Shown here: piece after piece, positions 2 to 29,362 of the stretch
Layout: every line of letters begins with the position of its first letter
Numbering within the stretch: position 1 is the first letter of the stretch
The notes under the pieces: model-generated
The model's input: only the letters and a program-made list of their open reading frames with translations
The model's database searches: none
Told to the model about the DNA's origin: nothing
Translations under genes and position numbers: made by a program
Assembly: GCA_043821705.1 (NCBI GenBank)
Contig: JBDRCN010000051.1
Coordinates: forward strand, 28,007-92,006
Direction of reading: 5' to 3'
Length of the DNA stretch: 64,000 bases
DNA from: Candidatus Omnitrophota bacterium
Lineage (GTDB): Bacteria > Omnitrophota > Gorgyraeia > Gorgyraeales > Gorgyraeaceae

Positions 2-700
2 TATTTTTATGTTAGCGAGAAAAGGGGAAGTATAAAGAATGTAAATTTTGCTACATTTTTACTTATATTTTCTGCGATCGGCCTGACTTTTTCAAGGGGC
101 ACATGGATCTCTTTGATATTGATGCTCACGGTTTGGATGGCATTAAAAAGGAAGTTCAAGTGGATTGTTTTAGTGTGGAGCCTGGCTGTATTGTTTATCT
201 GGTTCTCTTCTTCAAGGTTTTGTTTTATCCCGGGCTTTAGGCATCGCTTTAGGATAGAACTATTGAGGCATTATATTAAATATGCTCACAGGACAGGTGC
301 GTATTTAGTTACTTGGAGCATGTTAAAAGAACACCCTTTTGTAGGTATTGGTCTAGGTCATTTTAGAGTATTATTTAATCTCTATTCAAATACGAAGCGT
401 AGCTATGAAGTCATGATCCCTGACAGCGTTTATCTCATGCATTTGGCAGAGACAGGTATTATCGGATTCGCAGGTTTTATAGCATTTTTAGGGAGTATAT
501 TTAGGAAACTCTTTATATCGTATGGGAAATCTGAAGAAAATAGTAAAAAGCTGATTTTTTATATGTCCATAAGCTTTATAGGCCTGTTGTTTAATATGAA
601 TACTTATGATGTTTTTTTATGGAAGACACCGCTTTATCTGTTTTGGTTGTTTTGTGGAATTTTAATGTCTTTTTCTATGGAAGAGCAAGCTCGTCTATAA
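2..700 (+). CDS. O-antigen ligase / Wzy_C-family membrane protein, 5'-truncated by the window edge. The frame is open from base 2 and the stop is at 698-700.
   Basis: The translation contains FSRGTWISLILML...HPFVGIGLGHF...YLMHLAETGIIGF and multiple TM segments typical of the O-antigen ligase domain. The reading frame runs open to the window start. Confidence 0.55.
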   Translation, partial: YFYVSEKRGSIKNVNFATFLLIFSAIGLTFSRGTWISLILMLTVWMALKRKFKWIVLVWSLAVLFIWFSSSRFCFIPGFRHRFRIELLRHYIKYAHRTGAYLVTWSMLKEHPFVGIGLGHFRVLFNLYSNTKRSYEVMIPDSVYLMHLAETGIIGFAGFIAFLGSIFRKLFISYGKSEENSKKLIFYMSISFIGLLFNMNTYDVFLWKTPLYLFWLFCGILMSFSMEEQARL

Positions 701-1817
701 ACGTATCAAGGTCATCTATAATTTTTTCCCAGTTATATCTTAGCGATGCTTCTCTAGCAGCCTGCCCCATTTTTAATACGATATCTTTATTATCTGCAAG
801 ATAGGCCAATTTTTTAGACATCTCAGTGGAAGATAGCGGGGTAAGAAGCCCGGTGACATTATTATCTATTATCTCTTTTGGGCCGCCTTGATCTATTGCT
901 ATTACAGGTTTTCCATAAGCCATTGCTTCTATAATAGTGATGCCAAAGTCTTCGTTGGGGGTAGTGGAAAGAGTTGCATAGCTATTTTGGAAAAGCTTAC
1001 GGAAAGTGTTTTTATCCGGATCTGGTATAATTTTTATTTTTTTATTGTTTTTAGATAGTTTTACTAGATAGTTATAGTATTTCTCGCTTCTTTTGTCTAA
1101 TTGTCCGGCTATGATAAGTTCAAAATTATTGTTTTTTTTGCAAAATATATTAAATGCTTCTATAGAAAGTTCAATATTTTTCCACCACTTTAGTCTGGCA
1201 GGGTGCAGAAAATAATTGTCATATTTCCATGTAGGAGTTATATTTTTACAATTTACCCCATTTGGCAATATGTGAATATGATTTTTGCTTATAAGATCAG
1301 CATTCAGAATTCTTTTTTTTACTTCTTGGCTTATCGTTATGGCATGTTTATAGTTTTTCCATGCTATCTTATCAATTGCCTTAAAGATATTAGACGCTAA
1401 GAGAAAAATAGGTTTTTTAAGTATATTTTTCTTTAAATAGACACCTTTCATGAAAGGATCATGAATAACTTTAATAGGGGTATGACAGAAGCATAAAATA
1501 GGTAAAGAGTGGTTTCTGAGCGTTATAAGATCTCCAAGCCCTTCGCTGTGTACTATCAATGCATCGTATTTTGAAAGGTTTATTTTTTGGAAGCACACCT
1601 TTAAAGCAGCCAGTAATACTTTTAAATATCCGCGCTCAACAGGTATTTTTGATAGCTCTACAATGTCTAAGTTCCTGAATTCTTTAAATGTTTGATCTTT
1701 ATCATAGTGGCTTGTAAAGATGGTCCAATTATGACGGCTACGCTTCACTGTTTCTAGTATAGTTTTCTCTATGCCACTTTTTAGATATATCCAAGGGTAA
1801 TATAAGGCAATTTTCAT
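675..1817 (-). CDS. Glycosyltransferase family 1 (GT4-type, retaining)
   Basis: 380 aa. The C-terminal GT1 motif EDFGITIIEAMAYGKPVIAIDQGGPKEII...TGLL is present. It is convergent with the upstream ligase gene. Confidence 0.85.
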   Translation of the reverse strand: MKIALYYPWIYLKSGIEKTILETVKRSRHNWTIFTSHYDKDQTFKEFRNLDIVELSKIPVERGYLKVLLAALKVCFQKINLSKYDALIVHSEGLGDLITLRNHSLPILCFCHTPIKVIHDPFMKGVYLKKNILKKPIFLLASNIFKAIDKIAWKNYKHAITISQEVKKRILNADLISKNHIHILPNGVNCKNITPTWKYDNYFLHPARLKWWKNIELSIEAFNIFCKKNNNFELIIAGQLDKRSEKYYNYLVKLSKNNKKIKIIPDPDKNTFRKLFQNSYATLSTTPNEDFGITIIEAMAYGKPVIAIDQGGPKEIIDNNVTGLLTPLSSTEMSKKLAYLADNKDIVLKMGQAAREASLRYNWEKIIDDLDTFIDELALP

Positions 1818-1837: not shown

Positions 1838-2923
1838 ATGTGTTATAATGAAGTTATGGAAAATAAAAAAACCAGCTTTGAAGATCGGTTGATATTTTTA
1901 TGTGCTCAGATAAAAACCACAACAGCTCAAATTGATGAGATTAAAGAGGTCTTAGCGCATAATCTGTCATGGGAACATGTTATTGCAGTATCAAGTAAGC
2001 ATGGTGTGTCCCCATTTTTATATTATAATCTAAAAAAGACAGATTTGTCAAACTTGATATCAAAAGATATTTTTGGAAGATTGAAAAATATTTATTATTT
2101 GAATTTAGCTAGAAATTTAAAATTATTAAATGAAGTATATATTTTGATATATTCTTTAAGAAAAAACGGGATCGATGTTATCCCGCTAAAAGGAGCATGT
2201 TTGTTGGAGACAGTCTATAAGGATCCTGGCTTAAGAAGAATAGCTGATATTGATATTTTGGTAAAAGAAAAAGATCTGGATAAATTAAGAGAAAATATGC
2301 CAAATGAGTACATTGAATGGGAATGCGCTGACCTAACTCAAAAGAAAAAACATACAAATTTTACAAGATCAATAACAAAGTTCTTAAAATTACATCTAGA
2401 CGTACATACGAATATATCAAATCTATCTATGCCAAGACCTCATAAAATAGATATTCCGCTATGGGATAGGGCTGAGATATATGATATAAACGGTAAAGAT
2501 ATTTATTTTTTATCAAAAGAAGATACTTTCTTAAATTTAGCCATTCATTTGAGGAGGCATACTCGTGTGGCGACGTTAAAGTTAAAATATTTGCAGGATA
2601 TTGCAGAGCTGCTTAAGGCTTACGGAAAAGACTTTGACTGGAGATATATATTAAGGATGGCAAAGAAGAATAATATTAAGAATGCTGTGTTTTATGCGTT
2701 GTTTATTTGTAAGAAGTTTTTTGGAGTTTCTGTTAATGAGGAAGTTTTTTTTAGTCTTAGACCAAACAGTCTTATAGTCAAAATTATGGATATCTTACTT
2801 AATAAAGAGACATTTTTTAAATTAAAACCATGGCATGGAGTGATATTGAGATTGTTGATGTTTGATAGGTTTTACTATGTTTTTTGTTATCTACATATAA
2901 TAGTTTTTAGAAAATGGGACTAG
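1838..2923 (+). CDS. Uncharacterised nucleotidyltransferase-like protein (NTP_transf_5-like). It is the first gene of the candidate RiPP island.
   Basis: 361 aa with a DxD-type motif RIADIDILV. Its size and composition resemble the nucleotidyltransferases found beside HPr-kinase-like enzymes in RiPP clusters. An extended -10 TGtTATAAT at 1841-1849 overlaps the first ATG, so the true start may be the ATG at 1856. Confidence 0.5.
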   Translation: MCYNEVMENKKTSFEDRLIFLCAQIKTTTAQIDEIKEVLAHNLSWEHVIAVSSKHGVSPFLYYNLKKTDLSNLISKDIFGRLKNIYYLNLARNLKLLNEVYILIYSLRKNGIDVIPLKGACLLETVYKDPGLRRIADIDILVKEKDLDKLRENMPNEYIEWECADLTQKKKHTNFTRSITKFLKLHLDVHTNISNLSMPRPHKIDIPLWDRAEIYDINGKDIYFLSKEDTFLNLAIHLRRHTRVATLKLKYLQDIAELLKAYGKDFDWRYILRMAKKNNIKNAVFYALFICKKFFGVSVNEEVFFSLRPNSLIVKIMDILLNKETFFKLKPWHGVILRLLMFDRFYYVFCYLHIIVFRKWD

Positions 2924-2989
2924 ATACATAAAGTTATTTACCTTAAGAACAAACTATTGTATACTGTGGAGTATGGAGAAGCGTGAAAT

Positions 2990-4957
2990 ATGAAAAGTGA
3001 ATACATGGCTATAAAAAACCAAACAAATCTTCCAAGAATACCACTTGAGGCAAGTATAGATCTTACCTATAGATGTAATAATAACTGCAGGCATTGCTGG
3101 AATCGGATACCTGGAAACTCAAAAAAAGAAAAAGAAGAGCTTTCGTTAGAAGAGATTAAAAATATAGCTTCTGAAGCCAGGAGCCTAGGAACAAGGAAAT
3201 GGCTTATCTCTGGTGGGGAGCCTATGCTGAGGCAGGATTTTATAGATATATTTGATTATTTGACCAGCCATTCCAAAAGCTTTCATCTTAATACAAATGG
3301 CACCCTGATTACTCCCAAGATAGCAAAAGTTTTTAAAAAGAGGCGCGGCGCTATAATGGTGGCTTTATATGGCGGAGATAAAAAGGTGCATGACCATATT
3401 ACCCGCAACCCAGGCTCATTTGAGCAAGCTTTAAGAGGTTTTAGATATCTAAAAGAAGAAGGGGTTAGATTTATAGTTCAGCTGATTCCCATGAAAGATA
3501 ATTTCCATCAGATAGATAAAATGAAAGAATTAGCTAAATCTCTCAGTGATGTTTATAGAATAGGCGCTTCATGGCTATTTGGTTCTGGATGCGCGGAAAG
3601 AAATAAAGAGATATTTAAGCAAAGGCTTCCTGCGGAAGTGGTGGTAGATTTAGACAAACCTGATATGTCATATGATAATAATGGTTTTGATCCGGAAGAA
3701 GAGGTTAAAAAAGAGGAGAGTTGCAGTATTAATACGAAGGGTATTTTTTCATCCTGCATAGACATGAGGCGTAATTTTCACATAGACCCCTGTGGAAAAA
3801 TGAGCTTCTGCAGTTTTGTTATAGGCCCGGAATTACGATACGACTTAAAATCAGGAACATTAAAAGATGCATGGGAGAATTTTATCCCATCTTTAAAAAA
3901 TAAGCTTACTGCTACAGAAAGATACCAGAAAACTTGCGGTTCGTGTGAACTTAGAGGAGATTGTAAGACATGTCCTGCTTATAGTTATTTGGAACATAAA
4001 AATTATTCAGGGAAGATAGGTTATCTTTGCGATGCAGCAAAAGAGACAAAGAAATATAAGGATAACTGGAAAAAGAATCACAGGAGGTTTTACGAAATAG
4101 CTGATATCAGTATACAGGTTGATTCAGATCTTCCTATAACAGATAAGACCTTTGCCAGTAAGTTTAAAGAGTTTGAAATAAAAAGCCCAGAAAAAGACAT
4201 AGTTAAAATAAGGCATCACTTTGGCATACCTGACATAACAAAAAAAGTTCTAGGAGAGGAGGTCTATCGTAAAGCACCATGGGCAATATATAAAAAGAAA
4301 AATTCCTGGATATATTTAGGTATATCTCCGATAGAAGACGATAAGCACCTTGATAGAATCGCTGTCTTTAATAAAGAGCATACTAGGCTAAGAGTGTATA
4401 ATACTAAGAGCAATAAGTTATTAAATAATTGCTCAACATCTTTAACTTTTTTTCCTAATGACCAGATAATGATTTCCAGGGCCTTGGCAGACAGAAATGG
4501 GTGTTATTTTCATTCAAGCGGAGTGGATTTTGAAGGAAAAGGCCTGTTGTTTATAGGACACGCAGAGGCAGGTAAGACTACAATGGCCAAGCTTTTGGAG
4601 GAAAAAGGAGCGGATATATTGTGCGATGAGCGTGTTATAGCCAGGAAAAAAAATGGCCAGTTCAGAATATATGGCACCTGGGATCATAGTGATTGGAATA
4701 AAGTGCTTAATAAAAGCGCTCCCTTAAAAGGAATATTCTTTCTTGAAAAATCAAAGCATAATTACTTAGAAAAAGTAAAGAATAAACAGATAATCATAAA
4801 AAAGCTTCTTTCAAGGGTTGTTAGGCCATTTGTAGATAAAGAATGGTGGGATAAGATAGTTTCAATAATAGAAGCTTTATCAAATGAAGTACCATGTTAT
4901 TTTGTCTATTTTGATAAGACAGGCAGGATAGCAGAGGTATTAAGGAAGTTAAAATGA
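2990..4957 (+). CDS. Radical SAM / SPASM-domain peptide-modifying enzyme fused to a C-terminal HPr-kinase-like P-loop domain
   Basis: 655 aa. It has a CNNNCRHC (Cx3Cx2C) radical-SAM motif and a GGEP glycine-rich SAM motif. A Cys-rich SPASM region CGSCELRGDCKTCPAY follows. The C-terminal HSSGVDFEGKGLLFIGHAEAGKTT...ADILCDERV matches the HprK C-domain pattern H-S-x-V-x-GKG-LL-G-x-GKT...DD/ER-V. Confidence 0.8.
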   Translation: MKSEYMAIKNQTNLPRIPLEASIDLTYRCNNNCRHCWNRIPGNSKKEKEELSLEEIKNIASEARSLGTRKWLISGGEPMLRQDFIDIFDYLTSHSKSFHLNTNGTLITPKIAKVFKKRRGAIMVALYGGDKKVHDHITRNPGSFEQALRGFRYLKEEGVRFIVQLIPMKDNFHQIDKMKELAKSLSDVYRIGASWLFGSGCAERNKEIFKQRLPAEVVVDLDKPDMSYDNNGFDPEEEVKKEESCSINTKGIFSSCIDMRRNFHIDPCGKMSFCSFVIGPELRYDLKSGTLKDAWENFIPSLKNKLTATERYQKTCGSCELRGDCKTCPAYSYLEHKNYSGKIGYLCDAAKETKKYKDNWKKNHRRFYEIADISIQVDSDLPITDKTFASKFKEFEIKSPEKDIVKIRHHFGIPDITKKVLGEEVYRKAPWAIYKKKNSWIYLGISPIEDDKHLDRIAVFNKEHTRLRVYNTKSNKLLNNCSTSLTFFPNDQIMISRALADRNGCYFHSSGVDFEGKGLLFIGHAEAGKTTMAKLLEEKGADILCDERVIARKKNGQFRIYGTWDHSDWNKVLNKSAPLKGIFFLEKSKHNYLEKVKNKQIIIKKLLSRVVRPFVDKEWWDKIVSIIEALSNEVPCYFVYFDKTGRIAEVLRKLK

Positions 4958-5053
4958 AAGTTCAATTTTTAAGAAAATCTTCAATATTTGCAAAAGTGTG
5001 GTATAATATATTAAAGATATATAAGCCATATTGTTAAAATAGGAGGATGTTTT

Positions 5054-5263
5054 ATGAAACAAAAAAAATGGGATAAGCCTGAATTGATTGTATTGTTGAG
5101 AGGAGAACCTGGAGAAGATGTTTTAATAGGGCAGTGCAAAACAGACACCGATGGTACTGACAAAATAGGGCCTATGGATGTAATAACAGGTTGCAGAGTT
5201 AACGCAGGTTGGATGGGCTGTCCGCCGGAGACAGCGTGCAGAGATTTTAGTTATACAACTTAG
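5054..5263 (+). CDS. RiPP precursor peptide A, with a PqqA-like leader (WDKPELIVLLRGEPGE) and a Cys-rich core ending in ...CRDFSYTT
   Basis: 69 aa. A strong RBS AGGAGG lies 8 nt upstream. A TGn-TATAAT promoter is at ~4976-5004. The core has five Cys. It lies between radical-SAM maturase genes. Confidence 0.6.
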   Translation: MKQKKWDKPELIVLLRGEPGEDVLIGQCKTDTDGTDKIGPMDVITGCRVNAGWMGCPPETACRDFSYTT

Positions 5264-5361
5264 CTAGCTCAGGAGGCTGAGAAAGTCTCGTTTTGTGTAT
5301 AATTTTGCTTTAGTAATAGTAGGATTTATAAATTTGTTATGTTAAAAAAGGGGTATTTATT

Positions 5362-5577
5362 ATGAAACAAAAAAAATAGAATAAGCCTGAATTGATTGTA
5401 TTGTTGAGAGGGGAGCCAGGAGAGTCAGTATTAGTCGGTGAATGTCTTACTGTATCAGCCGAGCCAGAGTTAGGTTCTAGTATAGGTGCAGCAGCAGAGG
5501 TAAACAATTGTGCATTGGTAAGATCTGCTGGTTGTGCAGCTATACAATGCAGTGCTATAGGCTATGAAGTCATATAG
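5362..5577 (+). CDS. RiPP precursor peptide B, a paralog of A, with an in-frame TAG at codon 6 (5377-5379) where A has TGG (Trp). It is either a pseudogene or uses the TTG start at 5392.
   Basis: The nucleotide sequence atgaaacaaaaaaaaTAGaataagcctgaattgattgtattgttgagagg parallels precursor A codon for codon. The downstream leader ELIVLLRGEPGESVLVGEC is conserved. The core is Gly/Ala/Cys-rich and sactipeptide-like. Confidence 0.45.
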
Positions 5578-5646
5578 GGGATTTCTGCTTTTATTTGTCT
5601 CGGCCCAAGATGAGATTGCAATCTAAATATTTAAAAGAAGCTAGCT

Positions 5647-6828
5647 ATGCATCAGGTATATGTAAAGAAAAAAAACATAAAACCTTATTTAGGTACTTTA
5701 ACCATAGAGCTTACAGAGAGGTGTAATAATAACTGCACTCACTGCTGTATTAACCTACCTGAACAGGACCTAGAGGCAAAAAGAAAAGAACTTTCCACAG
5801 ATAAGATAAAGTCTATTATTGAAGAGGCGCTTATTCTTGGCTGTAGGAAGATATGGTTTACAGGAGGAGAGCCTCTTCTAAGAGAGGATTTTGAAGACAT
5901 ATACATATTTACGCGTAAACTTGGGTTAAGAGTACTTCTTTTTACTAATGCTATGCTTATTACTCCTCGCATAATAGATGTTTTTAAAAAATATCCACCT
6001 AATGAAAAAATAGAAGTCACAGTATATGGATTAACTAAACAATCCTATGAATCTTCTACCAGGGTTCCTGGTTCTTTTGAAAAATTTAATCAAGGTACAA
6101 ACTTATTAAAAGAAAACAATATCCCATTTGTAATCAAGACAGCTTTATTGCCAGGAAATAAGCATGAAATGGGTAAAATACGAAGTTTTTCAGATTCCCT
6201 TCCTGCTACAGAGCTTGGCCTTCATTATTCTCTGCATTTTGACCTGCGAGGAAGAAGGGATGATGAAAAAAAGAACAACATGATAAAGCAATTAAGGATT
6301 TCTTCAAGAGATTCACTAGAGGTTTTAGCGAAAAATCGCGATGCTTATATTAAAGAGAAAAAGTTATATTGCAATAGATTTAATGGCTTAAAGGGAGATA
6401 GGCTTTTTTCATGCGGCGCAGGAATGCAGGGGGCGACTCTGGATGCTTATGGAAATCTACAACCCTGCGTTCTTCTTCGCCACCCTGATACAGTTTATGA
6501 CATTAAGAAAGGCACATTAAAAGAAGGGCTTAAAAAAATGCTCTATGAGGTGAGGAATATCCGTGCTGCTAACCCTGATTATTTATCCCGTTGTGCAAAA
6601 TGTTTTATAAAAGTATTATGTGAGCAGTGCCCAGGAAAATCATGGGGAGAACACGGTACTCTGGATACGCCGGTTGAATATCTTTGCAGTCTTGCGCATG
6701 GTTCTGCAAGATTTCTTGGCCTTTTAAAAGATAATGAAAGGGCGTGGGAGATTGAAGATGGGATAGAGAGGATGGAGAGGTTCACAGGCAAGAAAATAAA
6801 GGAGGTAGAAAGTGTCAACAAAAGTTAA
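5647..6828 (+). CDS. Radical SAM / SPASM-domain peptide maturase (paralog 2)
   Basis: 393 aa. It has CNNNCTHC, GGEPLL, and a C-terminal Cys cluster CAKCFIKVLCEQCPG. It is highly similar to the enzymes at 2990 and 7603. Confidence 0.8.
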   Translation: MHQVYVKKKNIKPYLGTLTIELTERCNNNCTHCCINLPEQDLEAKRKELSTDKIKSIIEEALILGCRKIWFTGGEPLLREDFEDIYIFTRKLGLRVLLFTNAMLITPRIIDVFKKYPPNEKIEVTVYGLTKQSYESSTRVPGSFEKFNQGTNLLKENNIPFVIKTALLPGNKHEMGKIRSFSDSLPATELGLHYSLHFDLRGRRDDEKKNNMIKQLRISSRDSLEVLAKNRDAYIKEKKLYCNRFNGLKGDRLFSCGAGMQGATLDAYGNLQPCVLLRHPDTVYDIKKGTLKEGLKKMLYEVRNIRAANPDYLSRCAKCFIKVLCEQCPGKSWGEHGTLDTPVEYLCSLAHGSARFLGLLKDNERAWEIEDGIERMERFTGKKIKEVESVNKS

Positions 6829-7120
6829 TCTTGATAAAATTTATAATATCTCTGACGAAGATGTTGTAGCTAGGGAAGTTGCTGGGGAATTTTTAATTAT
6901 TCCTATAACATCAGGCGTAGGAGATATAGAAGATGAGATCTATACTCTAAATGCTACAGGCAAGGCTATATGGGATAAGATAGATGGTAAAAAAACATTA
7001 AAAGAGCTAGCTTCAGAGCTTGCTGCTGAGTTTGAGGGCACTTCTGAAGACATTGAAAGAGATGTCACAGGCATAACAGAGGAGCTTTTAAAAAGAAATA
7101 TAATCTCTGAAAAGAAATAA
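6812..7120 (+). CDS. PqqD-like RiPP recognition element (RRE) protein
   Basis: 102 aa. Its size and pattern (VAREVAGEFLIIP...TLNATGKAIWDKIDGKKTLKEL...) are typical of the PqqD family. It overlaps the upstream radical-SAM gene by 17 nt. Confidence 0.65.
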   Translation: MSTKVNLDKIYNISDEDVVAREVAGEFLIIPITSGVGDIEDEIYTLNATGKAIWDKIDGKKTLKELASELAAEFEGTSEDIERDVTGITEELLKRNIISEKK

Positions 7121-7121
7121 T

Positions 7122-7613
7122 ATGTATCTTAGATATAAGGATGAAGTTGCTTATTTTTATAACGAGGAAATGATTGATTTAATGAAAGAAGCTTTCAAAA
7201 AAGGTAATTCCTTTCGTTTTAAGGCCAAAGGGTTTAGTATGTCGCCTTTCATTAAAGGCGGAGATGTTATTACTATTAAGCCGTTAAAAGAAGTTTCTTT
7301 GATAATAGGCGATATAGTATCTTTTATAAGCCCTAAAACAAATAGCCTTGCAGTGCACAGGATAGTCTCCATAAAAAAAAACGGTTGTGTGTTTAAAGGG
7401 GACAATAGCTTTAATTCTGATGGATTGGTTTTAAATAAGGATATTCTAGGTGTAATAAATAAGATAGAGAGAAATAATAAAGATATTACTTTCGGGCTTG
7501 GTAAGGAAAAAGGTATTATAGTATTTTTAAGTAGGACTAGAATCCTATTTTTATTTTTAAAGGTGTTTAGAGGTGTAAGGCGCTACACCAGGAGATTTTT
7601 TAATGGGAGATGA
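7122..7613 (+). CDS. S24/S26-family (signal-peptidase/LexA-like) serine peptidase, a candidate leader peptidase
   Basis: 163 aa. It has a GFSMSPFIKGGD nucleophile box, GDIVSF, HRIV and a KGDNSFNSDG box E-like motif. It is wedged between RRE and maturase genes. Confidence 0.55.
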   Translation: MYLRYKDEVAYFYNEEMIDLMKEAFKKGNSFRFKAKGFSMSPFIKGGDVITIKPLKEVSLIIGDIVSFISPKTNSLAVHRIVSIKKNGCVFKGDNSFNSDGLVLNKDILGVINKIERNNKDITFGLGKEKGIIVFLSRTRILFLFLKVFRGVRRYTRRFFNGR

Positions 7614-8751
7614 TTTTGTAAAGGTTCAGAAAATAACAGAGTTTAAGTTTAGAGGAAGCTCAAGCTCCACAAATACTCCCAAAGCTTTTAGTTTAGAACT
7701 TACTGCCAGGTGTAATAATAGGTGCGGGCATTGTTACATAGGCTTACCTGCCAATGATAAGGCTGCCAAAGAAAAAGAGTTGTCTTTTGAACAGATTAAA
7801 AGCATAGTTGATCAGGCTGTTTCAATGGGTGTTACAGGATGCCTTTTAACAGGAGGAGAGCCTCTCTTAAGAGATGATTTTTTTGACATCTATTTATACC
7901 TTAAGAAAAAAGGCCTATTTGTGTCTATTTTTACTAATGCCTGCCTTATTACAGAAGAACATGTAAAGCTTTTTAAAAGATATCCGCCGCGTGATGTTGA
8001 AGTAACAGTATATGGCGTTACAAAAGAGACGTATGAAAAAGTCACAAATGTCCCAGGTTCTTTTGATTCTTTTATGAGGGGGCTGAACCTTTTACTAGAT
8101 AATAGTATCAAGGTCAGGTTTAAGGCAATGGCTGTAAGGTCTAATTTAAAAGAACTTGAAGAGATCAAAAAATTCTGTAATGAAAGGACAAAAGATTATT
8201 TTAGATTTGACCCATTGCTTCATTTTAGGTATGACAGAAATGAATTCAGAAACCAGATGATTGCTTCCGAGCGCCTTACGCCTCTAGAAATAGCCCAGAT
8301 AGAAAAAGAGGATTTGAAGAGATTCGAGGTTTTGAAAAAAAACTGTGACAACTATATTATGCCGGAGTTTTTAGATAGAGTTACTAATCGCCTTATCTTA
8401 TGCGGAGCTGGTAATGGGAAATTTGTAGTAACTTATGACGGCTATTTTAAGCTATGCTCATCGCTTCATCATCCAGACTGTATGTATGACCTAAAAAAAG
8501 GCACTTTAAAGGATGCATGGGGAAACTTTATACCTAAAGTGAGGACAATGACCTCAAATAGGAAAGAATTTCTGGAAAAGTGCAGTAAATGCCCTATAAT
8601 AAATCTCTGCCTATGGTGTCCTGCGCATGCGTATCTTGAATCTGGTGAACTGGATAAGCCGATAGATTATTTCTGTGAAGTGGCGCATGCACGTGCGAAA
8701 ATGCTGGAAAGTGCAGTAAAGAAAAAAGAAGATGAAAAATTGCTAAAGTGA
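7603..8751 (+). CDS. Radical SAM / SPASM-domain peptide maturase (paralog 3)
   Basis: 382 aa. It has CNNRCGHC, GGEPLL, and a C-terminal CSKCPIINLCLWCPAHAY. Over its N-terminal ~150 aa it is ~50% identical to the 5647 gene by eye. Confidence 0.8.
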   Translation: MGDDFVKVQKITEFKFRGSSSSTNTPKAFSLELTARCNNRCGHCYIGLPANDKAAKEKELSFEQIKSIVDQAVSMGVTGCLLTGGEPLLRDDFFDIYLYLKKKGLFVSIFTNACLITEEHVKLFKRYPPRDVEVTVYGVTKETYEKVTNVPGSFDSFMRGLNLLLDNSIKVRFKAMAVRSNLKELEEIKKFCNERTKDYFRFDPLLHFRYDRNEFRNQMIASERLTPLEIAQIEKEDLKRFEVLKKNCDNYIMPEFLDRVTNRLILCGAGNGKFVVTYDGYFKLCSSLHHPDCMYDLKKGTLKDAWGNFIPKVRTMTSNRKEFLEKCSKCPIINLCLWCPAHAYLESGELDKPIDYFCEVAHARAKMLESAVKKKEDEKLLK

Positions 8752-8887
8752 TAAATTGCTAAATGGCTAAACTGTTAAATGGCTAAATTGCTAAATTGTT
8801 CAAAATTCAAAAATGATATAAGAAAAAGGACATAAAAATAAGGTAATTTATTTTGTATAAATACTAAAGATAGTATCTTGGGGAAAT

Positions 8888-10678
8888 ATGAGGCTATTCC
8901 AGCCTGATTTTAAGCAAACCAAAAAACAGTTCGAACTTTTTTTAAAATTCGTGAGGCTTATACTGCCTCATAAAGCCAAATGGATATTTATAATCTTATT
9001 AGGGGGTTTCTGGACGCTCTTAAGTGTAGTCAATCCATATATAACAAAGCTGGTTGTGGATGAAGGGATAATGAAGAGTGACCTGAGAAGATTTATAGCG
9101 CTAGCAGCCTTAGGGATCGTGATATTTATTATTCTTGGGGCAATCAATGGATTAAAGGAATATCTGGAGAAAAAAGTAAGCCTAGAGGTAAAATTTAGCT
9201 TAAATAAAATAGTTTTTGATAAGATCAATAAACTTTCTCTCAGCTGGTTTAGGACTAAATCAACAGGAGAGAATATCTATAAGATCAGTAATGACATTGA
9301 TAGGGTAAATAGCCTTATTACGACTATCCCTCCTAAAGCAGTAATGCTTTTTCCAAGAGTGATCTTTATCTTTTTAATAATGTTAAAGCTGAATTACAAA
9401 ATTGCTTTATTTTCATTGCTTTTAGCGCCATTTTTGTATATAGGCCCGTATTACTTTATCAAGAAACGTAGATCGATCTGGGAAAAATTAATAGAGTGCT
9501 CTCAAGGTATATTTAAATTTTTACATGAAAGTTTTTCACATAGCTATCTTATAAAAGCATTTGGCAAGGAGAGAGAAGAAAAGGACAAGTACTTAAAAAT
9601 ACTAAAAGATAATATTGAGATAGAAAAGACCAGCACAAAGCTAAACATTTTTAATAGCTTTGTTGCAAGGATAGCAGATAAGATCATAGTAGGGCTGATC
9701 ACTTTTTATGGCGGATACCATGTTATTAAGGGAGAGATGACTCTAGGGAGCCTGACTGCGATCTTAGTCTATCTAGGGCAACTGGTAGGCATGCAGCACG
9801 GGTTTATAGGATTTTTCCAGAGCACTGTCCTAGGCCTCGTATCATGCGAAAGGATAGCAGGTATCCTGGATGAAAAAGAAGAAATCACTGAAACATGTGA
9901 CGCAAAAGATATTTTAATTAAAAAAGGCGAAATAGAATTTAAAAAAGTAAATTTTGGATATTCTAAAGGTAAAGCTATTTTAAAAGATCTTGATTTCAAA
10001 ATAGAGGGCGGAAGGCATATTAGCTTAGCTGGTTCTTCGGGGCAAGGCAAGACCACAATCTTAAACTTGATCGCAAGGCTTTATGATGCGGATAGCGGTG
10101 AAATAATGATCGATAGGCAGTATATAAAAGACATCACGCTTAACTCCTTAAAAAAACAGATCAGCATGGCATTGCAGGAGACATTTCTTTTTAATACAAG
10201 CGTAAAAGACAATATCCTCTATGGGGACGGGAATGCTAGCTTAGAAGATGTTATAAGAGTGAGCAAGATTTCTTTAGTAGATAGTTTTACTGAAAATCTG
10301 CCAGAGAAGTATGACACAGTTATAGGTGAAAATGCATGTAAGATCTCAGAGGGACAGAAGCAGAAGATCGCTATTGCGAGAGCTTTAATTAAAAATCCTA
10401 AAGTTTTGATCCTAGATGAAGCATTTTCATCTATGGATTCAGCTAGCGAAGATAAGATAATATCGAACATAAAAGAAAATTTTAAGGATATTACAGTAGT
10501 CAGCGTCTCCCACCGCTTATCAACAGTAAAGCAATCAGACCTGGTGTATTTTTTAAATAATTCTGGGGGGATAGAGGTAGGTAAGCCAGAAGAACTTTTA
10601 GAAAAGAACATGGAATTTGAGGAATTGTTCAAGGGACAGAGGGAATTGACCATATCAGACCCGGGGTCTAATACATAA
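8888..10678 (+). CDS. ABC exporter, fused permease and ATPase (no C39 peptidase domain)
   Basis: 596 aa. An N-terminal 6-TM domain is followed by Walker A GSSGQGKTT, an ISEGQKQKIAIARAL signature, and Walker B LILDEA. Confidence 0.85.
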   Translation: MRLFQPDFKQTKKQFELFLKFVRLILPHKAKWIFIILLGGFWTLLSVVNPYITKLVVDEGIMKSDLRRFIALAALGIVIFIILGAINGLKEYLEKKVSLEVKFSLNKIVFDKINKLSLSWFRTKSTGENIYKISNDIDRVNSLITTIPPKAVMLFPRVIFIFLIMLKLNYKIALFSLLLAPFLYIGPYYFIKKRRSIWEKLIECSQGIFKFLHESFSHSYLIKAFGKEREEKDKYLKILKDNIEIEKTSTKLNIFNSFVARIADKIIVGLITFYGGYHVIKGEMTLGSLTAILVYLGQLVGMQHGFIGFFQSTVLGLVSCERIAGILDEKEEITETCDAKDILIKKGEIEFKKVNFGYSKGKAILKDLDFKIEGGRHISLAGSSGQGKTTILNLIARLYDADSGEIMIDRQYIKDITLNSLKKQISMALQETFLFNTSVKDNILYGDGNASLEDVIRVSKISLVDSFTENLPEKYDTVIGENACKISEGQKQKIAIARALIKNPKVLILDEAFSSMDSASEDKIISNIKENFKDITVVSVSHRLSTVKQSDLVYFLNNSGGIEVGKPEELLEKNMEFEELFKGQRELTISDPGSNT

Positions 10679-10712
10679 AAGATACTAGGGCAAGACCCCG
10701 GGTCTTGAATAT

Positions 10713-11606
10713 ATGATATCCGTAATAGTTGTAAATCATAATAGAAGCGCGCTATTGAAGAGGTGTCTTGAGTCTCTTAGGGGCCAGAGCCTTATGGACT
10801 TTGAGGTCATTGTGGTTGATAATGCATCTAGTGATGATAGTGTAGAGATGGTAAAGACCTATTTTCAGGATGCAAAGGTCATACAAAACACAACTAACCT
10901 ATATTTCTCAAAAGCATATAACCAAGGCATGGAAGCATCATACGGAAGTTTCATCCTGTGCTTAAATAATGATGCGTACCTGGAGAAAGATTTTTTAAAA
11001 GAAGCGCTCTTTGCTATAGGAAAAGATGAGAAGATAGGCATGGTAAGCGGAAAGATCCTTCGCGAAGATAAATTGACCATAGATTCAACAGGGCTGTTTT
11101 TAGGGAGAAATCGCAAGCCTATAGAAAGGGGTTACGGGTTACCCTCCTACGCCAAGGCTACGGAGGGCAGGCGGGATACGGGGCTGTATGATAAAGAAGA
11201 ATATATCTTCGGAGTAAGTGGCTCATGCGCATTTTACAGGAAAAAGATGCTCGAAGACATAAAAGATAAACATGGGTATTTCGACGAGAGGTTCGAGATG
11301 TATTATGAAGACTTGGACCTTTCCTGGAGAGCGCAGAAGAAGGGATGGAAAGCGTATTATACGCCTAAGGCGATAGCATATCATAAAAGGAGTTCAGGTT
11401 TTTTCACGATCCCAGATGACTTAAAGAAAAAATATATAAGGAATCGCTATTTATGCATGAAGAAAAACGATTCATTAAAAGATGTCATATGGAATATACC
11501 CTTTATATTAATATATGAAATTAAACTTTGGGGCTATATGATGTATAACTATTTTAGATCCCGGATCTTAAACATAGAAAAAACTCCGGCAAGATCCGGG
11601 ATCTGA
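10713..11606 (+). CDS. Glycosyltransferase family 2
   Basis: It has an N-terminal MISVIVVNHNRSALLKRCLESL...VVDNASSDDS DxD-type GT-A fold signature. Confidence 0.8.
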   Translation: MISVIVVNHNRSALLKRCLESLRGQSLMDFEVIVVDNASSDDSVEMVKTYFQDAKVIQNTTNLYFSKAYNQGMEASYGSFILCLNNDAYLEKDFLKEALFAIGKDEKIGMVSGKILREDKLTIDSTGLFLGRNRKPIERGYGLPSYAKATEGRRDTGLYDKEEYIFGVSGSCAFYRKKMLEDIKDKHGYFDERFEMYYEDLDLSWRAQKKGWKAYYTPKAIAYHKRSSGFFTIPDDLKKKYIRNRYLCMKKNDSLKDVIWNIPFILIYEIKLWGYMMYNYFRSRILNIEKTPARSGI

Positions 11607-22169: not shown

Positions 22170-22204
22170 TTAAGTGTTTTTAATTCATAAAAAAGGAGGA
22201 TAAA

Positions 22205-22855
22205 ATGTTGCGTAATCCCATTATTCAAACAGGTGCTACTTATCATATTTATAGCAAGAGCATAGCGGGTTATAAAATATTTAATAGTGAGTCTGAATAT
22301 TTGCGAATGAAGGAGCTTATGGTATATTACCTGGCAGATAAAAGACAGATTAGTTTTTCTAAGTTTAAAGAAAAAAATGCAGAGATTTTATTAGGAAATG
22401 TGTCGAGCAAAGGAAATCTTGTGCAAATAATATGTTATTGCCTTATGCCTACGCATATCCACTTAACACTTACCCAGTTAGCGGATAAAGGTATATCCAA
22501 ATTTATTGGCAATATTCTTAGCAGCTACTCCCACTATTTTAATTTAAAACACAACAGGAAAGGGCCATTGTGGGAAGGGAGGTTTAAAGGTGGCTTAGTA
22601 AAAACTGATGAACAGCTTCTTCATCTAACGCGTTATATTCACTTAAATCCTGTTTCCGCATATCTAGTTGACAAGCCAGGAGATTGGAAATACTCTTCCT
22701 ACAAGGAATATATTTCGAAAGAACATTGCAAAAGCAGTTTATGTAACTATGATAATGTGTTAGACATCCAGCCTATTTTATATAAAAAATTTGTAGAAGA
22801 TAGGATTTCCTATCAAAGAGAGTTAGTCAAGATAAAGGCTTTAATATTTGACTAG
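22205..22855 (+). mobile_element. REP-associated tyrosine transposase (RAYT; IS200/IS605-like HUH Y1 transposase)
   Basis: 216 aa with an HIHL HUH motif (CYCLMPTHIHLTL) and a YHIY region. It is flanked upstream and downstream by the REP palindromes. Confidence 0.8.
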
Positions 22856-27912: not shown

Positions 27913-28572
27913 GTGATCCGTAAGATGAAAATAATAGATATTGGATTGAAAAAATATAGAGAAGCATATGAATTTCAACTTGAGCTAGTGGAAAAGGTGT
28001 CAAGGGGCCTAGAGCCGGATACGCTGATAATAACAGAGCATTACCCAATTATAACTTTAGGTCGACGCAGCAAGCTAGAGAATATTTTAGCATCAGAAGA
28101 AGAGTTGAATAATTTGGGGATAGAAGTGTTAAAGATCGATAGAGGCGGAGATGTCACGTATCACGGGCCAGGGCAGCTCGTAGCATATCCGATCATGAAG
28201 CTGGAGAATGAAGCGAAGGACATACATATATTCTTGGATTACCTAGAAGAAGTAGGGCTGGATTTTTTATCCAGATACAATGTGTCTGGTAGCAAGAAGT
28301 CAGGTTATAGAGGTGTTTGGGTAGGAGAACAGAAGATCGCTTCTATAGGAATAGGCGTGAAAAAATGGGTCACTTATCATGGTATAGCAATAAACATAAA
28401 TACCAGGCTAAAAGATTTTTCACTTATAACACCTTGCGGCATAAAAGATATTGGGATGACCAGCCTAGAAAAAGTGCTGGGCAAAAGGATCGACATTGAT
28501 CATGCAAAAGACAGACTCGTCTCCTCGTTCAAAGAGGTTTCCTTATTGGCTAAGGCAGACGCTTATAAATAA
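27913..28572 (+). CDS. lipB: Octanoyltransferase (lipoyl(octanoyl) transferase)
   Basis: RGGDVTYHGPGQLVAYPI motif. Confidence 0.85.
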   Translation: MIRKMKIIDIGLKKYREAYEFQLELVEKVSRGLEPDTLIITEHYPIITLGRRSKLENILASEEELNNLGIEVLKIDRGGDVTYHGPGQLVAYPIMKLENEAKDIHIFLDYLEEVGLDFLSRYNVSGSKKSGYRGVWVGEQKIASIGIGVKKWVTYHGIAININTRLKDFSLITPCGIKDIGMTSLEKVLGKRIDIDHAKDRLVSSFKEVSLLAKADAYK

Positions 28573-29362
28573 TAAGGATGAAGAGGATGTAAGGCAACTA
28601 TTAAAAGAACTTGGCCTTAACACAGTCTGTCAGAGCGCAGTATGCCCTAATATATATGAATGTTTTTCAAAAAAGATCTGCACTTTTTTAATATTAGGGG
28701 AATATTGCACTAGAAGCTGCAGGTTCTGCGCTGTTAAGACAAAGAAAAAATATCTAGAGAGACCTGGCGAAAAAGAGATCTTAAATATAATAGAAGCTAT
28801 TAAAAAGCTTAACCTAGAAAGAATAGTGATAACATCTGTTACTAGGGATGATCTGGAGGATGGGGGCGCAGGACACTTTGCACTGTGCATTCAGAGATTG
28901 AAAAACGCATTCAGAGATCTAGAAATAGAAGTGCTGGTGCCGGATTTTCTTGGGGATAAAGGATCTATAGAGACAGTTGTTAATTCAGGGCCAGATGTAT
29001 TTGCCCATAATATAGAGACAGTCCCAAGACTCTATGAACAAGTAAGACCAGAGGCAGATTACAAGAGGTCGCTACGGGTCTTGGAAGAAGCTAAGAACAT
29101 AAGGCTAGAAATAGTGATAAAAAGTGGGTTGATGTTAGGTCTGAGGGAAAAGAAAGAAGAAGTCCTCGAAGTGATGAATGATCTAAAAAGCATAGGATGT
29201 GACAATATAGTATTAGGCCAATATTTAAGGCCTAATAAAGATTGCATAGAAGTAGATAGGTTTTTAGAGCCTAAAGAATTTGAAGATCTGAAGCTGATCG
29301 CAGAACAGTTTGGTTTTAAAAAAGTTACATCAAGGCCTTTTGCCAGGTCTTCGATTGAATAA
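28496..29362 (+). CDS. lipA: Lipoyl synthase
   Basis: CPNIYEC and CTRSCRFC radical-SAM motifs. The start is uncertain (28496 or 28502). It overlaps the lipB 3' end. Confidence 0.9.
   Translation: MIMQKTDSSPRSKRFPYWLRQTLINNKDEEDVRQLLKELGLNTVCQSAVCPNIYECFSKKICTFLILGEYCTRSCRFCAVKTKKKYLERPGEKEILNIIEAIKKLNLERIVITSVTRDDLEDGGAGHFALCIQRLKNAFRDLEIEVLVPDFLGDKGSIETVVNSGPDVFAHNIETVPRLYEQVRPEADYKRSLRVLEEAKNIRLEIVIKSGLMLGLREKKEEVLEVMNDLKSIGCDNIVLGQYLRPNKDCIEVDRFLEPKEFEDLKLIAEQFGFKKVTSRPFARSSIE

Follow-up and report, generated by a model that had tools for sequence, protein, structure and literature searches.

The 64,000-nt stretch of contig JBDRCN010000051.1 considered here (the window), which comes from a Candidatus Omnitrophota metagenome-assembled genome (MAG) and has a G+C content of 38.6%, carries at positions 5054–5577 two neighbouring reading frames, precursors A and B, within a cluster of genes (1838–11606, all on the plus strand) that seems to direct the synthesis of a ribosomally made, post-translationally modified peptide (RiPP). 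Precursor A would be a canonical precursor of this pathway, which resembles the SynChlorMet (SCM) systems but is not one of them, and precursor B, whose frame is broken by a TAG codon close to its start, is probably a recently inactivated and decaying paralog. Among the options raised for B in a preliminary description of this DNA, which also included an alternative start and an assembly error, a freshly inactivated paralog is the one that fits best with an intact Shine-Dalgarno sequence, a 5′ segment of 48 nt that equals that of A except for two G-to-A changes, and, in the rest of the leader, a rate of nonsynonymous change (dN) much lower than that of synonymous change (dS).

Precursor A (5054–5263; 69 aa; locus tag ABH848_05350) has the translation MKQKKWDKPELIVLLRGEPGEDVLIGQCKTDTDGTDKIGPMDVITGCRVNAGWMGCPPETACRDFSYTT, opening with MKQKKWDKPELIVLLRGEPGEDVLIGQCKT and closing with SYTT. 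The B frame (5362–5577) consists of an ATG and four further codons (MKQKK), the TAG (5362–5379 in all), and a remainder in the same frame (5380–5577; locus tag ABH848_05355) that reads NKPELIVLLRGEPGESVLVGECLTVSAEPELGSSIGAAAEVNNCALVRSAGCAAIQCSAIGYEVI up to the final stop; this remainder opens with NKPELIVLLRGEPGESVLVGECLT, has NKPELIVLLRG followed by ECLT and three Cys, and closes with GYEVI. A direct repeat of 99 nt (5032–5130 and 5340–5438; 83% identity, 308 nt spacing) shows a likeness between the two genes that is far beyond chance, and both belong to one precursor family. A and B are tandem paralogous RiPP precursor genes, as had been proposed. Translations and alignment also agree with the earlier placement of the TAG of B (5377–5379), which stands exactly opposite the TGG of A at 5069–5071. 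The leader of A spans approximately residues 1–29, with the string K-K-W-D-K-P-E-L-I-V-L-L-R-G and a Cys28–Lys29 junction, and is followed by a core with three further Cys and a terminal Thr. Thus, A contains four Cys in all, and not a core of five Cys as first described, and B likewise contains four; moreover, the two cores, which had been considered completely different, align on a Cys scaffold plus a Tyr near the C-terminus.

The family was delimited with a profile made from A and the post-stop part of B, which was searched against 1.84 billion representative proteins and retrieved 84 of them at E ≤ 1e-3. Statistics refer to 81 members, mostly of 50–90 aa, and leave out a spurious 537-aa protein and B as called by NCBI from a TTG at 5392. 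The consensus leader, K-K-K-W-x-K-P-x-L-I-V-L-V-R-G, is very uniform, with the Trp present in 81/81 members, the Pro in 80/81, the Leu at +5 in 79/81, and the Arg at +10 in 75/81. The leader Cys lies 21–22 residues past the Trp and is followed by Lys (78/81) or Arg (3/81); three further Cys come after it in 59 of the 81 members, within a variable core, and the last residue is Ser in 65 and Thr in 13 (78/81, 96%). Precursor A bears all three of the marks of the family (W6, C28–K29, and a C-terminal Thr). In precursor B, the backbone of the leader is preserved, as are three Cys of the core, but three nearly invariant sites deviate from the family, with TAG in the place of the Trp, Cys-Leu in the place of Cys-Lys, and Ile in the place of the C-terminal Ser/Thr.

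A leader hidden Markov model (HMM) was also run over six-frame translations of related loci with stops masked, the loci having been anchored on a radical S-adenosylmethionine (SAM) enzyme and not on the peptide. It gave 45 distinct leader-bearing open reading frames (ORFs), 39 of them canonical, and it catches leaders that are truncated at the N-terminus, such as those of B (32.6 bits) and of a frame at position 4548 of locus L035 (32.3 bits). The Trp was missing in just these two of the 45 ORFs, both of which contain in-frame stops, and the only truncated entry among the 1.84 billion representatives was the TTG-started ORF of B itself. The L035 frame (~4548) is a precursor remnant with stops before LIVLIRN and within the core; the radical SAM match of the same locus takes ~1470 nt (1214–2680) where the query has 366 residues, which hints that the gene there is disrupted or contains an insertion. 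The locus looks like either a copy of the entire system in decay or the product of a long-read assembly prone to frameshifts. A third degenerate copy, L002:4699 (4699–4836), has a good leader and no Cys core. Thus, decaying paralogs occur in the family, as an exception.

The comparison of A and B codon by codon gives an indication of how recent the change in B may be. Codons 1–16 are identical at 46/48 nt and codons 17–28 at 22/36, so that the two genes are nucleotide-for-nucleotide parallel, as had been stated for the whole leader, in its first half and not in its second. Third positions differ at 0/16 sites in codons 1–16 versus 10/12 in codons 17–28 (Fisher p 5e-6), and the only differences in the former segment are two G-to-A changes situated two bases apart, at 5378 (producing the TAG) and at 5380 (Asp to Asn). 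In codons 17–28, only 4/24 first and second positions differ versus 10/12 third positions; dN is thus much lower than dS, indicating that purifying selection acted on the leader of B over most of its past. A nucleotide-level constraint on codons 1–16 was considered and rejected, as the paralog sets of six other loci display no 5′ excess of silent-site identity. Since silent identity is confined to codons 1–16 and does not appear in the other loci, it points to a recent gene-conversion tract of ~50 nt. The first ~48 nt of the B frame would then have been homogenised with A by gene conversion, after which the G-to-A changes at 5378 and 5380 would have arisen; given that the tract is identical apart from these two changes, the nonsense change must be very recent, or else an error. 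A structured RNA between A and B was also sought, and the intergenic fold was no better than that of shuffled sequence (z 0.10).

The possibility of an error has to be weighed in some detail. If the A at 5378 had come from faulty sequencing or assembly, or were a minority allele that became fixed in the MAG consensus, B would really read TGG in the organism and would be another intact precursor, one whose core has diverged. It is a single transition, it lies beside an A8 homopolymer, and B has kept both its ribosome-binding site and a second leader half under purifying selection; moreover, several precursors per cluster are the norm in the family (three in locus L001 and eleven or twelve in locus L002). 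However, no other base-call trouble is apparent in the window, where approximately 40 housekeeping genes have end-to-end Pfam matches with zero split genes, and the assembly is not error-prone. In addition, the second G-to-A change at 5380 means that B differs from A at two nearby sites, and the Cys-Leu junction and C-terminal Ile fit a relaxed constraint. A clean assembly, two nearby differences from A, and the other signs of relaxed constraint in B favour a real mutation, which we infer to be about four times as probable as an artefact, and an intact B hidden by an erroneous base is therefore unlikely.

Decoding of the TAG, whether by a suppressor transfer RNA (tRNA), as pyrrolysine, or by programmed read-through, would allow full-length B to be made in spite of the mutation. 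The stops of the 48 long ORFs in the window are TAA (22), TGA (14), and TAG (12), with pnp among the TAG-ended genes; these TAG codons stand at the expected ends, A itself finishes in TAG, and the window contains no tRNA gene and, among its ~48 annotated proteins, no Pyl-related family. As TAG ends 12/48 long ORFs and no tRNA lies in the window, the standard code applies and this codon is an ordinary stop, in line with what had been noted before, and the pyrrolysine or suppressor reading was rejected on these grounds within the window. Decoding of this TAG can hardly be credited, and it is very improbable that the amber codon of B is a programmed or switchable feature.

A further alternative is that B is expressed from the in-frame TTG at 5392, either directly or by re-initiation after the five-codon mini-ORF, giving a leader-truncated product (M-IVLLRGEPGE...) that would still be matured. 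NCBI annotates B in this way, with a TTG 5392 start and a 61-aa protein (ABH848_05355), and the leader keeps its latter half (VL..C). Nevertheless, the predicted Shine-Dalgarno strength is +0.2 kcal/mol at the TTG, in contrast to −8.1 kcal/mol at the ATG at 5362 (Shine-Dalgarno-like AAGGGG, 5348–5353) and −10.2 kcal/mol against the anti-Shine-Dalgarno sequence for A (AGGAGG, 5041–5046). The W-x-x-P segment, moreover, is missing from none of the 81 representatives, nor from any intact ORF of the related loci, and such a product would also lack the conserved Cys-Lys and the C-terminal Ser/Thr. The absence of a Shine-Dalgarno sequence at the TTG and its presence at the ATG cast doubt on the annotated start, which is probably an artefact of longest-ORF calling over a disrupted gene, and a product initiated at 5392, as had also been suggested, seems quite improbable. 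Translation of B from its own good ribosome-binding site would instead end after five residues, at the codon of the invariant Trp.

Several observations weigh against the proposal that B is an inactivated paralog, or at least limit it. B still has its ribosome-binding site and a −10-like TATAAT, and its leader is well conserved, so it is not an old pseudogene; furthermore, its Cys-Leu junction and C-terminal Ile, which are taken above as signs of decay, could mark a diverged yet working variant. Re-initiation might also occur, if with low probability, at the TTG at 5392, which lies 13 nt past the stop. Some radical SAM enzymes hold the leader through the SPASM domain and not through a RiPP recognition element (RRE) (PMC10906245), and in one lasso peptide system, single and double Ala replacements in the Y-x-x-P-x-L motif left processing unabolished (PMC10368454), a tolerance that also speaks for a truncated product; by analogy with both cases, loss of the Trp segment may not be absolutely disabling. 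As regards the base call at 5378, no sister strain and no B-like core were found in any collection searched. Thus, neither A nor the PqqD protein was on record in a contig index when its exact sequence was looked up, a word-index search of proteins with A as the query gave nothing besides A, A and B are each single-member clusters at 90% identity, a scan of JGI metagenomes with B (Trp restored) gave 600 pattern matches and 0 confirmed relatives, and an exact DNA scan with the shared 5′ leader, with N at both variable sites, gave no match. Finally, while the analysis shows the sequence features, the membership of the family, the figures for conservation, and the content of the cluster, every biochemical step of the pathway, like the reality of the A at 5378, is something that we infer, and in the case of the chemistry this counts on the same side. 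Inactivation of B is still the reading adopted here.

The cluster that contains the precursors opens with a putative tailoring enzyme of the NTP_transf_5 family (1838–2923; Pfam PF14907, E 3.5e-56). It is followed by radical SAM enzyme 1 (2990–4957; 655 aa; Radical_SAM E 5.3e-26), whose C-terminus carries, from ~4100 onwards, a fused P-loop domain that is HPr-kinase-like and of the ScmC type. Upstream of A lies an extended −10-like element, TGGTATAAT (4999–5007), which is a consensus match with a weak −35 and is unlisted by the promoter scanner, and 3′ of A there is a terminator-like hairpin followed by a T-run (5273–5289) that may act as a partial terminator. Downstream of B come radical SAM/SPASM enzyme 2 (5647–6828; Radical_SAM E 6.5e-22), a stand-alone PqqD-family protein (6812–7120), which is the presumed RRE, and an S24/S26-type, signal-peptidase-I-like peptidase (7122–7613), which is presumed to be the leader peptidase and contains a GFSMSP motif (Peptidase_S24 E 4.9e-6; sigpep_I_arch E 1.5e-11, just under the cutoff). 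Radical SAM/SPASM enzyme 3 follows (7603–8751; Radical_SAM E 2e-25, with a weak SPASM match, E 0.0031, under the gathering score), and then an ATP-binding cassette (ABC) exporter with fused permease and ATPase (8888–10678; ABC_membrane E 6.2e-36, ABC_tran E 2.6e-31), which has a counterpart in L002. The membership of a glycosyltransferase of family 2 (GT2; 10713–11606; Glycos_transf_2 E 7e-29) is uncertain, as a GT2 gene is adjacent in L001 but not in L002. Genes for Wzy_C (O-antigen-ligase-like), GT4, and GT2 proteins flank the cluster both in the window (113–1817 and 10713–11606) and in L001 (1–4413 and 10982–15104), which may be a coincidence or a link of the peptide to envelope glycan functions. 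Elsewhere in the window, an IS200-type Y1 transposase lies between cinA and recA (22184–22855), and a lone 297-aa radical SAM protein downstream of hisD (28469–29362) is unrelated to the cluster.

Family matches agree with the earlier description in that there are three maturase genes, all of the radical SAM type, and a PqqD-like gene downstream of the precursors (Pfam PqqD E 2.4e-15; 57.1 bits versus a gathering score of 23.4). The latter protein gives weak sequence matches in the PDB to PqqD (3g2b), to a lasso PqqD chaperone (9x90), and to TbiB1 (5v1u), and it is conserved in L001, L002, and L018. The CxxxCxxC motifs of the three radical SAM enzymes begin at residues 26–37, and these proteins have no N-terminal recognition domain; with no fused RRE in these enzymes, the PqqD protein is the only candidate recognition element. 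In enzyme 2, the SPASM residues C256, G269, C274, C316, C319, C325, and C328 are invariant in 27 homologs. The C-terminal half of enzyme 1 gives two sub-cutoff matches, one to ScmC (E 7.6e-7) and the other to HprK_rel_B (E 1.1e-6), and all the homologs of this domain carry PF27840 (ScmC); the enzyme also has a Walker A motif, GHAEAGKT. An AlphaFold2 model of the domain (mean predicted local distance difference test score 91.5) was compared with the PDB by Foldseek, and the best 50 of 58 matches (E ≤ 0.001) were all to HPr kinase/phosphorylase (HprK/P) or phosphoenolpyruvate carboxykinase (PEPCK), with E from 2e-6 to 2e-4 and modest TM-scores of 0.41–0.55 on the HprK domain. A profile of the domain also reached HprK/P 2qmh and 1jb1 at E 0.003, and an HprK/PEPCK-type fold is thus supported by the modelled structure.

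The gene set is widespread. Homologs of enzyme 2 number thousands at 53–59% identity, in Omnitrophota, Aerophobetes, Eremiobacterota, Poribacteria, Syntrophorhabdales, and Methanogenium, and the same set recurs in the contexts of L001, L002, and ~35 genomes with 43–56% identical enzymes, its range extending over Omnitrophota, Chloroflexota, Aminicenantes, Desulfobacterota, Chlorobiaceae, and methanogenic archaea. Constant companions of the family are the PqqD protein and a trio of orthologous radical SAM/SPASM enzymes, one of them ScmC-fused; a peptidase of the S24/S26 type, an ABC exporter, and a member of the NTP_transf_5 family are usually present as well. Both L001 and L002 contain the radical SAM–ScmC fusion, a radical SAM enzyme, PqqD, a further radical SAM enzyme, and an NTP_transf_5 protein, to which L002 adds a small peptidase-sized protein and an ABC exporter. 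The precursors of L002 (4321–11956; JGI Ga0309772_1000557, with L003 identical) form a tandem array, several of them being GTG-started and uncalled by the gene finder; in other loci there is often one precursor in the stretch fetched, some of these being short contigs. At L040 (~10063), L041 (~6786), and L037 (~10091), Y-x-x-P-x-[IV] (YVKPEI, YKRPKV) replaces W-x-x-P-x-L. The radical SAM enzymes of these loci are distant, with 36–37% identity in L037 and L040, which are too frameshifted to be used as references, and 54% over a weaker, partial match in L041.

The variable number of precursors bears on the idea, put forward at first, that two cores and three maturases might constitute dedicated substrate–enzyme pairs. 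The window does have two precursors and three radical SAM genes. However, all three enzymes have 1:1 orthologs in L001 and L002 at 52–60% identity, whereas the paralogs within the window share 31–41%, and the same trio, an ancient and fixed set, serves two precursors in the window, three in L001, 11–12 in L002, and often one elsewhere. In addition, the three Cys after the leader Cys in 59/81 members suggest that three enzymes may act on each peptide. Pairing is accordingly a very doubtful explanation.

On the basis of the gene content, a maturation route can be proposed. The leader K-K-W-x-K-P-x-L-I-V-L-x-R-G would be held by the stand-alone PqqD protein, probably via W-x-x-P-x-L, as the conservation of this motif and the analogy with PqqA/PqqD and with lasso leaders lead us to expect, and the PqqD protein would bring the Cys-containing core to the radical SAM/SPASM trio for cross-linking. 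As the leader Cys is followed by three more in most members, the three enzymes probably install one cross-link each. The near-universal C-terminal Ser/Thr, together with an HprK-like domain and an NTP_transf_5 gene, suggests a lasso-like tailoring in which both proteins could modify that residue; thus, the analogy suggests phosphorylation by the HprK-like domain, which the NTP_transf_5 enzyme possibly joins in decorating the C-terminal Ser/Thr. The S24/S26-type peptidase would then take off the leader and the ABC transporter would export the product. In this scheme, B would fail at recognition, as its translation stops and the Trp segment is not made, and probably at C-terminal tailoring as well.

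The stop in B would hence be an ordinary event, namely the loss of one copy of a redundant precursor gene, and the precursor family around it is of more use than the stop, being unmodelled, tied to a conserved and widespread gene set, and present in at least two cultured hosts. It comprises at least 80 clusters at 50% identity that neither Pfam nor NCBIfam recognises. Thus, A, B (Trp restored), and six relatives matched no Pfam or NCBIfam model, PqqA included, even at E ≤ 10, and the sole faint match of a family member, over the stretch KKxWxKPxL, was to the lasso-leader model of paeninodin (E 0.1–0.35). The consensus names positions that can be probed, namely Trp-x-x-Pro-x-Leu as the anchor of the leader, Cys-Lys at the junction, and Ser/Thr at the C-terminus. 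The system is present in two organisms that have been cultured and whose genomes are complete, Desulfosediminicola flagellatus IMCC35005 (L029, NZ_CP050698.1), whose precursor is a ‘CS’ variant with Cys at the C-terminus, and Methanogenium sp. S4BF (P0121), and both could act as experimental hosts.

Searches of the literature on SynChlorMet, on ScmC, on the leader (LIVLVRG), on PF14907, and on radical SAM with HPr kinase found no description of the system, nor was any report found in the literature searched of radical SAM cross-linking joined with a lasso-type kinase/nucleotidyltransferase pair. It may be, as a tentative broader view, that A and B represent an undescribed, phylum-spanning RiPP class, in which three radical SAM/SPASM enzymes cross-link a three-Cys core, a lasso-type kinase-like domain, possibly helped by an NTP_transf_5 enzyme, decorates the C-terminal Ser/Thr, and a stand-alone PqqD recognises a lasso/PqqA-like W-x-x-P-x-L leader, and that B reflects turnover of the precursor array by conversion and decay.

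Four known types of system share features with the cluster. PQQ (pyrroloquinoline quinone) biosynthesis likewise has a stand-alone PqqD adjoining radical SAM/SPASM enzymes. The PqqA leader segment is W-K-K-P-A-F, and the resemblance to PqqA claimed for the leader at first stands as far as a motif of the type aromatic-x-x-P-x-hydrophobic near the N-terminus of both peptides is concerned, but does not extend to a match with the PqqA model. The enzymes of the cluster score 63.6–72.9 bits with PqqE versus a cutoff of 381, and the PqqD equivalog model gives 38.5 versus 46; moreover, no PqqB or PqqC family is present among the cluster ORFs, and the core of PqqA is Glu-X3-Tyr, whereas that of the present precursors is Cys-rich and has 40 residues. 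PqqD binds the N-terminal leader of PqqA (PMC10906245).

The paeninodin and pseudomycoidin lasso clusters, with their B1 (RRE), K (kinase), and N (nucleotidyltransferase) proteins, share with the cluster a Y/W-x-x-P-x-L leader, an RRE of the PqqD type, and genes for an HPr-kinase homolog and for a nucleotidyltransferase, and their precursors end in Ser. The lasso homologs of HPr kinase place a phosphate on the C-terminal Ser of the precursor while it is linear, and the N-type nucleotidyltransferase then adds sugars to this phosphate (PMC8498205). Lasso leaders contain the motif Y-x-x-P-x-L (PMC10368454), to which the Y-x-x-P-x-[IV] of L040, L041, and L037 is nearer than W-x-x-P-x-L is. However, lasso clusters encode an Asn-synthetase-like cyclase and a B2 transglutaminase-type protease, neither of which has a family match among the cluster ORFs, where three radical SAM/SPASM enzymes and a Cys-rich core are found instead. 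Ranthipeptides and sactipeptides (SCIFF/CteB, PapB, AlbA, StsB) have in common with the cluster Cys-containing cores and radical SAM/SPASM enzymes with a full SPASM Cys motif; nevertheless, the matches to their models are partial and far sub-cutoff (PapB 60 versus 340, StsB 86 versus 625, AlbA 65 versus 850), and the cluster enzymes have no N-terminal fused RRE.

In architecture, the cluster is like SCM, where a PqqD-family protein, PqqE-like radical SAM/SPASM enzymes, and an HprK-like ScmC also occur together (TIGR04248–TIGR04251, PF27840), with the same broad taxonomic range and relatives in Desulfobacterota, Chlorobiaceae, and methanogens. SCM has two radical SAM enzymes, whereas the cluster has three, one of them ScmC-fused, and the cluster also differs by its S24/S26 peptidase, ABC exporter, and NTP_transf_5 protein. 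The scores are below the cutoffs for ScmC (28.7 versus 125), ScmD (32.6 versus 100), ScmE (84.0 versus 400), and ScmF (97.6 versus 400), and the Chlorobiaceae relative, L018, falls below the SCM equivalog cutoffs as well. Membership in the PqqA, SCM, lasso, PapB, StsB, and AlbA groups was thus rejected, as their models or required genes were not matched, and, since the cluster reaches no equivalog cutoff (ScmC/D/E/F, PqqE, PapB, StsB, AlbA, or MftC), precursors A and B belong to a system with an SCM-like architecture that lies outside every curated family.

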